From sequence record PQ306574.1: a stretch of 64,000 nucleotides of DNA, one strand, 5' to 3'. The notes under the pieces are model-generated. The model had not been told where the DNA came from, ran no database searches, and saw only the letters and a program-made list of their open reading frames with translations. Positions 9,636 through 49,082 of the stretch are shown here, piece after piece. The position numbers and the translations under genes are program-made. The stretch is from Escherichia phage vB_EcoM_PTE-Eco09. The stretch's first letter is position 1. Each line of letters opens with the position of its first letter.

Positions 9636-9643
9636 TATTTATA
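9636..9643 (-). promoter_or_regulatory. T4-type late promoter motif TATAAATA upstream of gp9
   Basis: Plus strand reads TATTTATA (reverse complement TATAAATA) about 28 nt upstream of the gp9 ATG, directly after the cassette terminator. Confidence 0.55.
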
Positions 9644-9652
9644 AAATACATA

Positions 9653-9678
9653 CAAAAAAGCCGCCCACAAGGACGGCT
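9653..9678 (-). terminator. Hairpin plus U-run ending the MTase cassette (minus strand)
   Basis: AGCCGCC-CACAA-GGACGGCT stem (one bulge), then TTTTTT on the minus strand. Confidence 0.55.
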
Positions 9679-9683
9679 TATAA

Positions 9684-19859: not shown

Positions 19860-20414
19860 TTACACATCAGCCTTTTCCATTTCTCGAATGAATGCGTTAA
19901 TAAATTGTTTAATTTGTGTAGGATCTATGATCTTGATCTTGCGTCGTTCCTCATTACGGAGGATCGCATCTTCCAGTGTGTCTACTGCCGATAGTGCACC
20001 TTGAAACTGCAAATGACGATGATGAATATCCCCTTTATCATACCAATTGCTTGATCCTTTCGGATATTCGGTAAGATTCCAATACTTGTTTCCGTCAATA
20101 TCAACGTGGTATAATACTTGATTTCCTCCTACATTTGCATATCGCTGTTCGGCTGATTCATATGCTGTCTCTTGATCGGTGATCCAGTCATGGAATGGAT
20201 CGTATACGTCATTAATCATCAGCAAGATCCAGTAAAGTTGTTGGTTTCCGTATACTTCATATGCAACTTGTTCCGGTCGTGGACTACCTTGAATGTAATA
20301 TGTTTGTATGTTATAATCAGAAATTATTGCGTTGAAATATGCGCGGTAATTGCGCACAATGTCAGTAATCATCTTGCCGTTGTATTCAATGGCAGGGAAG
20401 AAAGAAAAGAGCAT
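19860..20414 (-). CDS. 53: Baseplate wedge protein (T4 gp53-like)
   Basis: 184 aa; YYIQGSPRPE..NQQLYWILLMINDVYDP resembles T4 gp53 YYIKGSPRPE..NPQLYWVLLMCNDNYDP. Confidence 0.85.
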   Translation of the reverse strand: MLFSFFPAIEYNGKMITDIVRNYRAYFNAIISDYNIQTYYIQGSPRPEQVAYEVYGNQQLYWILLMINDVYDPFHDWITDQETAYESAEQRYANVGGNQVLYHVDIDGNKYWNLTEYPKGSSNWYDKGDIHHRHLQFQGALSAVDTLEDAILRNEERRKIKIIDPTQIKQFINAFIREMEKADV

Positions 20415-20446
20415 TTTAGCACCCTCAATTGATAAATAGTATTATG

Positions 20447-20454
20447 TATTTATA
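20447..20454 (-). promoter_or_regulatory. T4-type late promoter motif TATAAATA upstream of gp53
   Basis: Plus strand TATTTATA about 33 nt upstream of the gp53 ATG, inside the inverted repeat GCACCCT..AGGGTGC (20419-20465). Confidence 0.55.
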
Positions 20455-20469
20455 ATAAAGGGTGCTAAA

Positions 20470-21165
20470 ATGGACTATCAAAAACAATATGAACGATTAA
20501 TTGAACGCGCAAAGCATAGAACGCTTGAAGGATATAAAGAAAAACATCATATTATTCCTCGTTGTATGGGAGGCGATGATAGTCCAGAAAATATAGTTGA
20601 GTTAACGGGGTCTGAACATTTTGTTGCTCATCAACTTTTAGCAAAAATGCATCCAACACATCACGGAATTGTACATGCGGCGAAAATATTGATGGGGTCT
20701 ACCAACTATAACAATAAACAATTTGAGTGGGTAAGAAAACTTGCGGTTGAGACTTCAAGAAAATTTCATACAGGAAGAAAAAGATCCGAAGAGACTAGAC
20801 GCAGAATATCAGAAGCAACTAAAGGAAAGAGAAAAGGAATTAAATTATCTGAGGAACATCGACAGAAATTATCTGCTTCATTAAAAGGTAGAGTGTTTAC
20901 AGAAGAACATAAAAGAAATATTGCGTCAAGAGAAATTACACAAGAATGGAGAGACAACATCTCTAAAGCGGGTAAGGGTAGAAAGTTGTCACAAGAAAAC
21001 GTAGAGAAATGGAAACGTATTCATAACACGCCAGAAATGAAACAAAAATATAGTGAATTGTCAAAGTCTCGTCCGTATTTCACCTGTCCTCATTGTGGAA
21101 AAACAGCCAATCAGGGAAATTATGTTAGATGGCATGGTGACAACTGCAAGAAGAAGGTGGTATAA
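20470..21165 (+). CDS. HNH homing endonuclease with NUMOD3-like repeats
   Basis: HHIIPRCMGG..N..EL..EH HNH motif, then repeated basic S/T-E-E-x-R-x-K motifs (GRKRSEETRRRISEATKG, KLSEEHRQKLSASLKG); inserted upstream of gp4. Confidence 0.8.
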   Translation: MDYQKQYERLIERAKHRTLEGYKEKHHIIPRCMGGDDSPENIVELTGSEHFVAHQLLAKMHPTHHGIVHAAKILMGSTNYNNKQFEWVRKLAVETSRKFHTGRKRSEETRRRISEATKGKRKGIKLSEEHRQKLSASLKGRVFTEEHKRNIASREITQEWRDNISKAGKGRKLSQENVEKWKRIHNTPEMKQKYSELSKSRPYFTCPHCGKTANQGNYVRWHGDNCKKKVV

Positions 21166-27609: not shown

Positions 27610-27788
27610 AATTATTTGCGTGGCTAATTATTTTAAATGTAATTGTTAAGACCGTTCTCGCTGGTTTACTGATGATACATAGCACGAAACCAGAAGAAGC
27701 ATTAACGTATTTTGTTGCTTATGTGCTGGGATTCTTGCTTACTGCGTGGATGTGTGATGAATATCGAAGAATTGAGGTAAAACCATGA
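27606..27788 (+). CDS. Small membrane protein (60 aa)
   Basis: ATGA start/stop overlap with the upstream ORF; hydrophobic. Confidence 0.45.
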   Translation: MKLFAWLIILNVIVKTVLAGLLMIHSTKPEEALTYFVAYVLGFLLTAWMCDEYRRIEVKP

Positions 27789-28003
27789 AAATGACTTTTT
27801 ATATCTTAGCAAGTATCATGCTTGTGATCTCTTCTGCACTATTTGCATTTCTTACCGTTTGGGGGATCTGTACTGATGCGAAGCCGTGGGATATCGTAGA
27901 AAATACGGTTATGTTCATTATCAGTGTCATGTGTCTTTTTGATGCGTTTAACTCTATCAAGGAAGAAGATCAAAAACGTCGCGAGAGAAAGCGATATAAA
28001 TAA
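27785..28003 (+). CDS. Small membrane protein (72 aa)
   Basis: GAGGTAA RBS; hydrophobic core and basic C-terminus (KRRERKRYK). Confidence 0.5.
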   Translation: MKMTFYILASIMLVISSALFAFLTVWGICTDAKPWDIVENTVMFIISVMCLFDAFNSIKEEDQKRRERKRYK

Positions 28004-28152
28004 TAGTGAACTAAAGACAGCGCGGTTAGAATGATTTGGACGTCACCTAGCCGCATTTATTACAGCGTATGGGGTGACCCGGTACGCTAAAGCATTCACT
28101 TGCTAGGCCGCTAGCAGGTTGGAGACAAGGAAGATTCGCTACCTTCCCTATA
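28004..28152 (+). ncRNA. Candidate structured non-coding RNA
   Basis: About 150 nt with no ORF on either strand and several inverted repeats (GTCACC/GGTGAC, CTAGGCCGCTAG, GGAAG..CTTCC), ending at the terminator at 28153. Confidence 0.25.
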
Positions 28153-28178
28153 AGCCACTCTTCGGAGTGGCTTTTTTA
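28153..28178 (+). terminator. Rho-independent terminator
   Basis: AGCCACTCTTCGGAGTGGCT hairpin followed by TTTTTT. Confidence 0.65.
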
Positions 28179-28204
28179 TTGCCTAAAATTTTTTAAAAAA
28201 GTTG

Positions 28205-28233
28205 TTGACACCAGATCACGCCTATAGCATAAT
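28205..28233 (+). promoter_or_regulatory. Early promoter module (TTGACA-N17-CATAAT), conserved-leader type
   Basis: GTTGTTGACA..TAGCATAAT..ATCGAAACGAAACAC leader. Confidence 0.65.
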
Positions 28234-28279
28234 ACACCCATCGAAACGAAACACACTTTCTTAAACGGAGAATCAAATT

Positions 28280-28465
28280 ATGGCACGTCGCATCACTAAA
28301 GCACTGAAAGCAGTAAGCAAAGAAAACGTAGTAGCTATTCTGGTCATCTGGGGTTATAACGAAGAATCCGCTAAACAGAAAGTTGAAGCAGGGTTTGAAC
28401 TGGCGGTAAAAGCAATGCCGAATGATGACTCTGTAGGACTGGCAAACTATATTGCATATTTCTGA
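28280..28465 (+). CDS. Hypothetical protein (61 aa)
   Basis: ATG after the promoter and ACGGAGAA RBS. Confidence 0.5.
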   Translation: MARRITKALKAVSKENVVAILVIWGYNEESAKQKVEAGFELAVKAMPNDDSVGLANYIAYF

Positions 28466-37878: not shown

Positions 37879-38164
37879 GACTACCATTAACCTTGTTATG
37901 TGGACTTTCAATTTCGTTATTGTTATTATGGCGGGTATTGAGATTGTCAAGCAATATCTGTTACAATCCAGAAATAAACATGTTGTAATTGATATGGACT
38001 CTCAAGGAAATAAGCTGATCCGGTTAGAAGATGGTCGGGAATATTGGGTAGGTTATCCAAAGACACTACGCGGATTTATCTTTGCTATGGGGGTTTGCTT
38101 CTTTTTCCTTTGTATCTGGACTTATATCGGTTTAGGCCTTGTTGGATTTTTGGAGATTAATTAA
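37871..38164 (+). CDS. Small membrane protein (97 aa)
   Basis: Two hydrophobic segments; overlaps neighbours by a few nt. Confidence 0.5.
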   Translation: MLETTINLVMWTFNFVIVIMAGIEIVKQYLLQSRNKHVVIDMDSQGNKLIRLEDGREYWVGYPKTLRGFIFAMGVCFFFLCIWTYIGLGLVGFLEIN

Positions 38165-38760
38165 TGGCGCAATTATATTTCTACTATGCATCTATGAACG
38201 CTGGCAAATCAACTTCTCTGTTACAAAGTGCTTATAACTATACCGAACGTGATATGCGAGTATTAATTCTTAAGCCAGCGATTGATAATCGAGATTCAGA
38301 AAGTGAAGTTGTTTCCCGAATTGGTCTAAGTGCTCCAGCGATCACCTTCACTAAATCGGATGATCTTTTCGATTTGGTTTATCGTGAATCATTAGGTAAG
38401 CGTAGACCGGATCGCTGGCGTCCTGATGCTGTATTTGTAGATGAAGCCCAATTTATGACTAAAGAGCATGTTTTAGGCTTGTGTGCGCTTGTTGATGATG
38501 CAAATATCCCTGTACTGTGCTATGGCCTTCGCACCGACTTTCAGGGCAATCTATTTGAAGGATCTGCGGCATTAATGGCATTTGCTGATAAACTGGTCGA
38601 AATGAAGGGTATTTGTCATTGTGGCAAGAAAGCAACAATGGTCCTTCGTGTAGATAAAGAGGGTAATGTTATTCGCGATGGTGCTCAAATAGAAGTTGGT
38701 GCAGAGGATAAATATGTCTCTGTGTGCCGTAAACATTTTATTGACGGTACTACCAAATAA
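38164..38760 (+). CDS. tk: Thymidine kinase
   Basis: YASMNAGKSTSLLQ P-loop, VFVDEAQF, YGLRTDFQGNLFEGS, CHCGKKA resemble T4 Tk. Confidence 0.9.
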   Translation: MAQLYFYYASMNAGKSTSLLQSAYNYTERDMRVLILKPAIDNRDSESEVVSRIGLSAPAITFTKSDDLFDLVYRESLGKRRPDRWRPDAVFVDEAQFMTKEHVLGLCALVDDANIPVLCYGLRTDFQGNLFEGSAALMAFADKLVEMKGICHCGKKATMVLRVDKEGNVIRDGAQIEVGAEDKYVSVCRKHFIDGTTK

Positions 38761-38779: not shown

Positions 38780-38819
38780 CCCCAGATTATAAATATAACT
38801 GAATATTTTTAATCTGGGG
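38780..38819 (+). promoter_or_regulatory. Long hairpin carrying a TATAAATA late-promoter motif in its loop
   Basis: CCCCAGATT..(22-nt loop containing TATAAATA at 38788-38795)..AATCTGGGG, about 33 nt upstream of the ATG at 38829. Confidence 0.35.
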
Positions 38820-38828
38820 GAATGACTT

Positions 38829-39131
38829 ATGTCATTTATTCGTAAAACTCTAACAGCGGCAATATGCTTGACTGCGGTCGGAAGTGTCAGTGCTGATCAA
38901 TATGATCCAACTGGTGACTTTACTGATTATTTCGACGGTGCAATGATAGTATATGTAAACAAAATATCTCCTTCCATTGAAACCAGCCAGAAATTTCATG
39001 CCCATATTATGAAGATGTATGCTCGTAGTAAATGTATGGATTCTAAGCAGTGTTTTATTATGGGGGAATATGCCGCACAACAGTTTGTTATGTTGCATAA
39101 TATGGAGAATCGAGAACATGAAATTCAGTGA
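38829..39131 (+). CDS. Secreted protein of unknown function (100 aa)
   Basis: Signal peptide MSFIRKTLTAAICLTAVGSVSA; GGGGGAA RBS. Confidence 0.5.
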   Translation: MSFIRKTLTAAICLTAVGSVSADQYDPTGDFTDYFDGAMIVYVNKISPSIETSQKFHAHIMKMYARSKCMDSKQCFIMGEYAAQQFVMLHNMENREHEIQ

Positions 39132-39516: not shown

Positions 39517-39750
39517 TGTTAGTCACATTGGGATACATACCAGAAGTAAAAGAATACTAGCATCAACACAACTATTTGTCTTCCTCATACTTTCGCGTGT
39601 TCAATTACTGCCGAATCGGAAGACCCGTCTAAGACGAGGAAGGGTTATCATTGGAAAGGGATGGTGAATTGGTTACTATGTTTAACTAGTTTAGCAAAGG
39701 TCGATTCAAACACTACTATACAAATGGACGTGAATAAAATATAATCAAAA

Positions 39751-39780
39751 AGCCATCCGAAAGGGTGGCTTTTTCGTTTT
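39751..39780 (+). terminator. Rho-independent terminator
   Basis: AGCCATCCGAAAGGGTGGCT hairpin followed by TTTTTCGTTTT. Confidence 0.65.
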
Positions 39781-39786
39781 TAGGTG

Positions 39787-39815
39787 TTGACAACCGGAAT
39801 AGGGTATAGCATAAT
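39787..39815 (+). promoter_or_regulatory. Early promoter module (TTGACA-N17-CATAAT)
   Basis: GGTGTTGACA..TAGCATAAT. Confidence 0.65.
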
Positions 39816-47691: not shown

Positions 47692-48165
47692 ATGTTACTG
47701 ACTGCTAAGAGTGCTAAAGAGTACAAACAAGAACTATTCGAAAAACAGGGGGGCATTTGCCCCCTTTGTCAATTGCCACTTTTTGAGGATATGAGCAAAA
47801 ACCATCTTGACCACGACCACGATCTAGATGGGAAAGGGCAAGGCCGCGTAAGGGGATTGCTTCATTCGTGTTGCAACCGCCTAGAAGGATCGTTGACCGG
47901 AGACTTTAAACGGTTTGGTGTTGGTGCTTTAGGTGCTGATTTCGTTGTTTGGGCTACAAACTATGTTAATTACATCAAAGGAGACTACACCAACAATCAT
48001 TTACATCCTCAATATGCTGTTGATAAAGTAAAACGATTTTCACGCTTGACACGCGCGGAGATGGTTGATATTATGGACGCAGAAGGTTTCGATTACTGCG
48101 ACGCTGATACAAGAGAAGAGATCACGAAGAAGTATAAGAAACAATTTATACAAAGATTAAGATAG
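47692..48165 (+). CDS. 49: Endonuclease VII, Holliday junction resolvase (T4 gp49-like)
   Basis: MLLTAK.., HLDHDHDLDGKGQGRVRGLL, NYIKGDYTNNHLHP resemble T4 endo VII. Confidence 0.85.
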   Translation: MLLTAKSAKEYKQELFEKQGGICPLCQLPLFEDMSKNHLDHDHDLDGKGQGRVRGLLHSCCNRLEGSLTGDFKRFGVGALGADFVVWATNYVNYIKGDYTNNHLHPQYAVDKVKRFSRLTRAEMVDIMDAEGFDYCDADTREEITKKYKKQFIQRLR

Positions 48166-48515: not shown

Positions 48516-49082
48516 ATGGTACAGAAAACGTATAAATTGTATCCGGCTAAGTCTTCAAATGATGCTGTTTTTGAACGAGGTCGTTATTACACTTTCCGTA
48601 ATGCTGAGTCCGCAGAGGAATTTGTTAAACGCTACCAACAACATAACAAGTTCCTGTATGGTGTGCTTCACAGGGGCTTTAAAGTTCTTACGGTTAATGT
48701 TATGGGTAAAGTGTATTTGGTAGAAACTCATGATTATGAGGGTGCGTCAATCATGATTGATGCAAGCGAGCGCAAATACTTTAAACGCATCACTAAAAAG
48801 CAGTTTGAAGAAATGAAACCAGTTAAGAAAGAAGAATCTCTGGAAGATCTGATTAACTTGTTTGGTAAAGTTCGCTCTATCTCCTTTGCGATTGAAGATG
48901 ACATTACCGACAATAAAATCTTTATCAAGAACGCGGAAGACCTGAAAGAGTTCCTTATTGAAAATAGATCTCGGCTGGAAACCTTTCTTGAAAGTGAAAT
49001 TATTCGACATGATACCTACGCTAAATTCAGCGCCGATAAAGTAGCTGAACTGAAAGAGATCCAAAAGTCATTTAACGCTTGA
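48516..49082 (+). CDS. Modular family protein (188 aa)
   Basis: AGAGGATTATATTATG leader; shares NERKYFKRI(T/S)K and a C-terminal LFG..xxLKxFLI module with 49139..50317. Confidence 0.5.
   Translation: MVQKTYKLYPAKSSNDAVFERGRYYTFRNAESAEEFVKRYQQHNKFLYGVLHRGFKVLTVNVMGKVYLVETHDYEGASIMIDASERKYFKRITKKQFEEMKPVKKEESLEDLINLFGKVRSISFAIEDDITDNKIFIKNAEDLKEFLIENRSRLETFLESEIIRHDTYAKFSADKVAELKEIQKSFNA

Follow-up and report, generated by a model that had tools for sequence, protein, structure and literature searches.

A predicted gp55-type late promoter lies in a hairpin that probably hides the rI (antiholin) ribosome-binding site in an RB49-like Escherichia phage

In bacteriophage T4, the leader of the lysozyme gene e carries late promoters within a hairpin that sequesters the ribosome-binding site (McPheeters et al., 1986, as described in PMC3014915). 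Early transcripts of e are translated about 100-fold less, and the same device has been ascribed to T4 e, soc, 49 and I-TevI (PMC3014915); mobE of phage Aeh1 also falls into this class. A second point of reference is the T4 rI.1-rI-rI.-1 operon, for which two promoters are described, a late one between tk and rI.1 and an early one 3.3 kb upstream, and which is reported to be expressed from early and late promoters (PMC2962797). The T4 sequence shows TATAAATA between tk and rI.1. Small stem-loops joined to promoters are also known from T4-like phages as PeSLs, repeated composite motifs that combine a terminator with an early sigma-70 promoter (PMC4122927).

Here, a locus between tk and rI is compared with these systems in a window of 64,000 nucleotides of Escherichia phage vB_EcoM_PTE-Eco09 (PQ306574.1). 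The window comes from a Krischvirus, RB49 and 57 other records of this genus sharing 97-99% identity with the region. Its features are as follows.

38164..38760, + strand: tk, thymidine kinase, an ORF annotated as tk in RB49 and 57 other Krischvirus records
38780..38796, + strand: 5' arm of the hairpin, CCCCAGATTATAAATAT, with the late promoter and, pairing with the Shine-Dalgarno (SD) sequence, a CCCC run
38788..38795, + strand: TATAAATA at -13 to -6, from which the rI-rI.-1 operon is predicted to be transcribed late and gp55-dependently
38797..38802, + strand: hairpin loop AACTGA, holding the predicted late start G38801 (+/- 1-2 nt)
38803..38819, + strand: 3' arm of the hairpin, ATATTTTTAATCTGGGG, expected in early and late RNA alike
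38816..38820, + strand: SD sequence of rI, GGGGG, 8 nt before the ATG and annotated as ribosome-binding site in the record of phage Makalu_003
38820..38837, + strand: small start-codon hairpin GAAUGAC-UUAU-GUCAUUU, whose loop contains A and U of the rI AUG and whose 3' arm begins with the G
38829..39131, + strand: rI, the RI antiholin (lysis-inhibition regulator); 100 aa, N-terminal signal or SAR-like segment
39118..39516, + strand: rI.-1 (DUF5856), second gene of the operon, overlapping the end of rI by 14 nt
39747..39784, + strand: canonical intrinsic terminator closing the rI operon, matching the RB49 TransTerm terminator 47750-47767
39787-39815, + strand: sigma-70-like early promoter after the operon terminator, matching RB49 Pe:47746

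Protein comparison identifies the ORF at 38829-39131 as the RI antiholin. Its product matches Pfam PF24205 over residues 4-97 with 82.8 bits (cut-off 27; E 1.6e-23) and PHROG 1246 'lysis inhibition' with E 3.7e-26, both Cys residues are conserved in the alignment to T4 RI, and the gene is likewise annotated as rI in RB49, whose annotation of rI.-1 agrees too. A reading made earlier from the letters of the window (the sequence-only reading) had called this a secreted-protein gene, which is broadly correct; with PF24205 and PHROG 1246 it can be specified as RI, a well-known regulator of lysis timing. Upstream, tk ends a string of early-type genes that would be the source of the proposed read-through RNA. 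Downstream, the 230 nt between the rI.-1 stop and the operon terminator (39517-39746, +) hold no ORF of at least 30 aa and fold no better than their shuffles (z = -1.85).

The copy of TATAAATA at 38788-38795 was confirmed, its last base lying 33 nt before the ATG at 38829. The motif by itself is not enriched: four copies were observed in the window against 6.4 expected, and at least four occurred in 88 of 100 shuffles. The counterpart site in RB49 is the late promoter Pl:48756, one of 17 predicted in that genome (Nolan et al., 2006; PMC1524935, Additional File 5), with a late-promoter HMM score of 10.5 (Nolan et al., PMC1524935). Pl:48756 spans RB49 48714-48756 on the - strand, where the window coordinate equals 87519 minus the RB49 coordinate. 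The late promoter between tk and rI.1 of T4 occupies the same site 3' of tk, with the same motif and the same operon. Of 14 lineages, each sampled by a genus-level representative, 12 have TATAAATA upstream of their rI operon, and only Acj61 and Aes508 lack it; the motif is invariant in 11 Krischvirus, and the consensus scan reported no sigma-70-like promoter overlapping it. Since T4, RB49 and these 12 lineages agree and the downstream gene matches RI, a T4-type late promoter giving late expression of an exported protein, as the sequence-only reading had supposed, is well supported, and it is not new. The accompanying claim that this is the sole exact + strand consensus after 20.4 kb fails, a second TATAAATA being present at 27995-28002 (+).

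Between the tk stop at 38760 and the ATG at 38829 lies a 68-nt intergenic region that contains the inverted repeat. The 9-nt arms described earlier, CCCCAGATT (38780-38788) and AATCTGGGG (38811-38819) with a gap of 22 nt, have correct coordinates. Nevertheless, most of that 22-nt 'loop' is itself paired, the full arms being 17 nt long (38780-38796 and 38803-38819; 16 of 17 pairs, 94% complementary) around a loop of 6 nt, so TATAAATA sits in the 5' arm and not, as had been stated, in the loop. The sole mismatch in the stem, T38790 against T38809, makes TATAAATA readable on the + strand only, because the - strand copy is TAAAAATA; this fits a directional design.

The structure is unusually stable. 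The 90-nt region around it has a minimum free energy of -28.7 kcal/mol (z = -6.9), equalled or bettered by none of 200 shuffles, and the hairpin by itself reaches -18.7 kcal/mol, ranking 8th among ~32,000 windows of 44 nt on both strands of the 64-kb window. At gathering score, Rfam 15 gave no match anywhere in the window, and the tRNA scan found nothing. Although the hairpin resembles a PeSL in being a small intergenic stem-loop joined to a promoter in a T4-like genome, it differs in being single-copy in the window, in carrying a late promoter and in lacking a sigma-70-like match. Membership of a PeSL-like repeat family was ruled out, the arm sequence having no second locus in the 64 kb and the hairpin no sigma-70-like site.

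The 3' arm ends in GGGG, so that, of the five G residues in the SD sequence, four are paired with C38780-38783 when the RNA reads through. By partition function, opening the rI SD sequence costs 14.4 kcal/mol in read-through RNA and 3.0 kcal/mol in late RNA from 38801; with a 6-nt SD window, the values are 15.0 and 4.3 kcal/mol. In the read-through RNA, each of the four stem-paired G residues has a probability of 0.00-0.006 of being unpaired, and G38820 has one of 0.106. The -13/-6 rule for late promoters (PMC1524935) predicts the late start at 38801, within the 6-nt loop, so that late RNA would contain the 3' arm and none of the 5' arm.

These calculations suggest that the hairpin probably hides the rI ribosome-binding site on early read-through RNA and leaves it accessible on late RNA. 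Transcripts that start upstream and read through tk would carry both arms and would fold the hairpin of about -18.7 kcal/mol, in which CCCC at 38780-38783 pairs with the G-run of the rI SD sequence; with that sequence paired, we propose that rI is poorly translated from early RNA. Late transcripts beginning at about 38801, in the loop, would have the 3' arm only, and without its 5' partner the SD sequence would be free and RI made late. The gene rI.-1 would be on the same late transcript, where its 14-nt overlap with rI may couple the translation of the two. We consider it rather probable that TATAAATA serves the rI-rI.-1 operon as its gp55-type late promoter and that the hairpin around it is a translational gate at the RNA level. 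The earlier suggestion of a 'regulatory structure' thus gains support, in the sharper form of SD sequestration (14.4 versus 3.0 kcal/mol to open).

Compared with T4 e, the arrangement is very similar. In both, TATAAATA lies in the 5' strand of a hairpin and the SD sequence in its 3' strand, RNA begun upstream would fold it, late RNA would lack the 5' strand, a gene for lysis timing is controlled, and the SD opening cost is nearly identical, the same calculation giving 13.7 kcal/mol for the gene e hairpin versus 3.9 and 0.5 kcal/mol for RNA from late promoters P1 and P2. The differences are that rI encodes an antiholin and not an endolysin, that the phage belongs to another genus, and that there is one promoter where T4 e has two. 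The rI stem is longer and AT-rich, and the AUG is not part of the main helix but sits in another, small hairpin. Whereas the T4 e mechanism was validated experimentally, the rI gate is predicted from sequence. A literature search for a described rI leader hairpin found nothing relevant, nor did one for transcript mapping or expression data in RB49 or Krischvirus; the role of the hairpin in rI control appears to be previously undescribed, whereas the promoter itself had already been predicted.

The same geometry recurs within the genome. Gene 53, which encodes a baseplate wedge subunit (PHROG 232), has its SD sequence and AUG in the 3' arm of a long hairpin, and its late promoter TATAAATA, at 20454-20447 (-), in the 5' arm. 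Opening of the gene 53 SD sequence costs 13.9 kcal/mol in read-through RNA versus 4.4 kcal/mol in late RNA, and RB49 has the same arrangement (10.4 versus 1.7 kcal/mol); since gene 53 of the window and of RB49 are alike, the device recurs in the genus.

In T4, rI.1 stands between promoter and rI, and there is no SD-sequestering hairpin (opening cost 1.5 versus 2.2 kcal/mol). No difference in SD opening between read-through and late RNA was found in the rI operons of PS2, PG7, Rgz1 and T4, and that of Matisse was small (4.3 versus 0.0 kcal/mol). As other genera lack the difference and T4 apparently expresses rI early, the proposed gate is specific to the Krischvirus lineage and dispensable for RI biology. 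Stable hairpins likewise occur at the rI-operon late promoters of Karamvirus PG7, Slopekvirus Matisse, Pseudotevenvirus Cronuts and Moonvirus Moon. These are GC-rich, are followed by a T-run and lie wholly upstream of TATAAATA, whereas the Krischvirus hairpin spans both promoter and SD sequence. The former apparently insulate rI from upstream transcription, while the latter would act on translation; the terminator-abutting layout is a transcriptional answer to the same insulation problem.

This comparison bears on the view, also raised by the sequence-only reading, that the hairpin serves tk. Under it, the hairpin would be mainly a + strand terminator or 3'-end stabiliser for tk, and the late promoter would restart transcription for rI. 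The terminator hairpins that abut the rI-operon TATAAATA in PG7, Matisse, Cronuts and Moon show that insulating rI from upstream transcription recurs, and the record of phage G2494 annotates the very same hairpin as a + strand terminator (ARNOLD prediction). However, the + strand tail, GAAUGACUUAUG, has no U tract, so the hairpin is not a canonical + strand terminator; neither the consensus scan nor the RB49 TransTerm list includes it, and the promoter is placed within the stem and not after it, unlike at the terminator-then-promoter loci. We regard this view as unlikely. More generally, no canonical + strand terminator was found between tk and rI by the consensus scan or, in RB49, by TransTerm; the upstream genes are tightly packed, and T4 sets a precedent for upstream transcription of the rI operon. 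Against the translational gate itself, in RB49 a TransTerm terminator lies inside the start of tk.4, which could lower the read-through that the gate presupposes, and late RNA keeps the start-codon hairpin together with a residual 3-4 kcal/mol of SD pairing.

Conservation bears on a further alternative, in which the late promoter is real and the palindrome has no RNA-level function, being neutral or acting at the DNA level, e.g. as a recombination or replication relic, so that rI is translated equally from all transcripts. Comparison sequences were GenBank phage records, as IMG/VR single-protein scans gave 1-5 near-identical loci each. Among 11 Krischvirus, the outer stem, promoter and SD sequence are invariant, 14 of the 16 pairs never vary, one A-to-G change in the 5' arm leaves a G-U pair, and 7 of the 10 distinct sequences lack pairing at 38789/38810. 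Compensatory changes are absent from these 11, no pair being altered on both sides; covariation therefore cannot prove the structure within the genus, and the evidence is conservation only. The best evidence of constraint comes from the alignment with the divergent JK32, where the 5' arm is 100% and the 3' arm 94% identical and the SD sequence with the start-codon hairpin is 100% identical, compared with 47% for the spacer just upstream of the hairpin, 67% for the loop and 77% for the rI coding sequence.

The promoter (8 nt) and the SD sequence (4-5 nt) could by themselves account for much of what is conserved in the arms. This, together with the lack of covariation and of such a hairpin in other genera, speaks for a palindrome without RNA-level function. 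On the other hand, the stem outside promoter and SD sequence (CCCCAGAT and AATCT) is also 100% kept in JK32, against 47% in the spacer and 77% in the coding sequence, the stability is extreme for the genome (z = -6.9; rank 8th), and the geometry of SD in arm and start in loop is that of a validated mechanism and is seen again at gene 53. A palindrome without an RNA-level role has, in our judgement, a small chance of being correct, no larger than that of the tk terminator.

Two other readings are weaker still. That the hairpin terminates antisense transcription entering tk on the - strand is very improbable: a U-rich tail, CUUUAUUUAU, does follow the stem on that strand and the record of phage TB34 annotates a - strand terminator here, but every gene of the region is on the + strand, no - strand TATAAATA lies downstream in the window, and the consensus scan is silent on both strands. 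Two public records (OX001802 and MK327935) thus bear automated terminator calls on this hairpin on opposite strands, with the late promoter and the pairing of the ribosome-binding site unmentioned. A site for RNase III or other processing that separates the tk and rI mRNAs and sets their stabilities is equally remote: the stem does have considerable length and hardly a flaw (16 of 17 pairs), and T4-type phages use host RNases widely (PMC3014915), yet no specific evidence was found and the placement of the start in the loop would go unexplained. The length of the stem also bears on a processing site. Typical RNase III substrates are longer than this stem, which counts against processing.

With these alternatives weighed, the hairpin is best read as a translational gate of the T4 gene-e type on the antiholin gene. 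The start-codon hairpin at 38820-38837 is the second most stable among the initiation regions of 94 SD-bearing ORFs in the window. Of 15 rI loci sampled across Straboviridae, about 10 have a hairpin of this kind (among them the rI start regions of loci L004, L006, L008, L029-L031, L033 and L034); PG7, Acj61, Matisse and Cronuts have none. The stems have five different sequences (GGCC/GGCC, GGGAC/GUCCC, GGGC/GCCC, GUCC/GGAC and AAUGAC/GUCAUU), and recurrence with such different sequences suggests that the antiholin gene has a translational element that is conserved. A bolder proposal, which we hold as possible if on the doubtful side, is that RB49-like phages make RI strictly late through the promoter-embedding palindrome, a device shared with gene 53, and that the start-codon hairpin is a possibly undescribed conserved translational operator setting the antiholin dose.

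Some rI starts deserve separate mention. In Skers (locus L012, about 385-400), 12 nt are missing around the rI start (TATGTCATTTAT), which leaves it without a start-codon hairpin; the remaining ATG is only 2 nt past the G-run, and a damaged rI start or an assembly error is possible. In Aes508 (locus L010, 855-880) and Aeromonas phage 25 (locus L027), a strong SD sequence and a GGGCC-AAU-GGCCC hairpin accompany an AUG that lies 16 nt upstream of the annotated rI start and out of frame. Possible reasons are mis-annotation of the start, a frameshift or an upstream ORF of short length.

Other sites of TATAAATA in the window have surroundings of their own. The palindrome of gene 53 (20408-20483) has as its arms the ribosome-binding regions (AGGGTGCTAAAATG) of divergent genes at 20414 (-) and 20470-21165 (+), and contains GATAAATA on the + strand. 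The divergent partner of gene 53 is a homing endonuclease of 231 aa (PHROG 655). RB49 lacks it and has gene 4 in its place, which there provides the palindrome arm. The copy at 27995-28002 (+), which is not among the late promoters of Nolan et al. (PMC1524935), overlaps the stop codon of ORF 27785-28003 and is followed by a structured non-coding stretch of ~170 nt, which ends in a terminator at about 28151-28178, and then by an early-type promoter. The 276-nt region 28004-28279 has z = -3.8, and 27995-28280 is kept in 58 of 58 Krischvirus records, with no Rfam match above gathering score; it may encode a late-expressed small RNA on the + strand. The third gene-proximal copy, at 9643-9636 (-) in the region of about 9636-9680, lies upstream of a 284-aa ORF and has a canonical terminator, AAGCCGUCC-UUGU-GGGCGGCUUUUUU, directly upstream, a layout as at rI in other genera.

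The rI hairpin thus probably adds a case to what is known from the T4 lysozyme gene, and the device of a late promoter within a hairpin that sequesters the ribosome-binding site would be extended to rI and 53. RB49 is listed without an apparent gene e (PMC3014915), the classic example of this device. Public records annotate the hairpin inconsistently; the practical consequence is modest, namely better annotation. The RI antiholin sets when and whether T4-type phages delay lysis, and if RB49-like phages block early translation of RI, the supply of antiholin would be tied to the late programme. If the gate is true, a different lysis-inhibition behaviour would be predicted in a genus that is common in phage-therapy collections.
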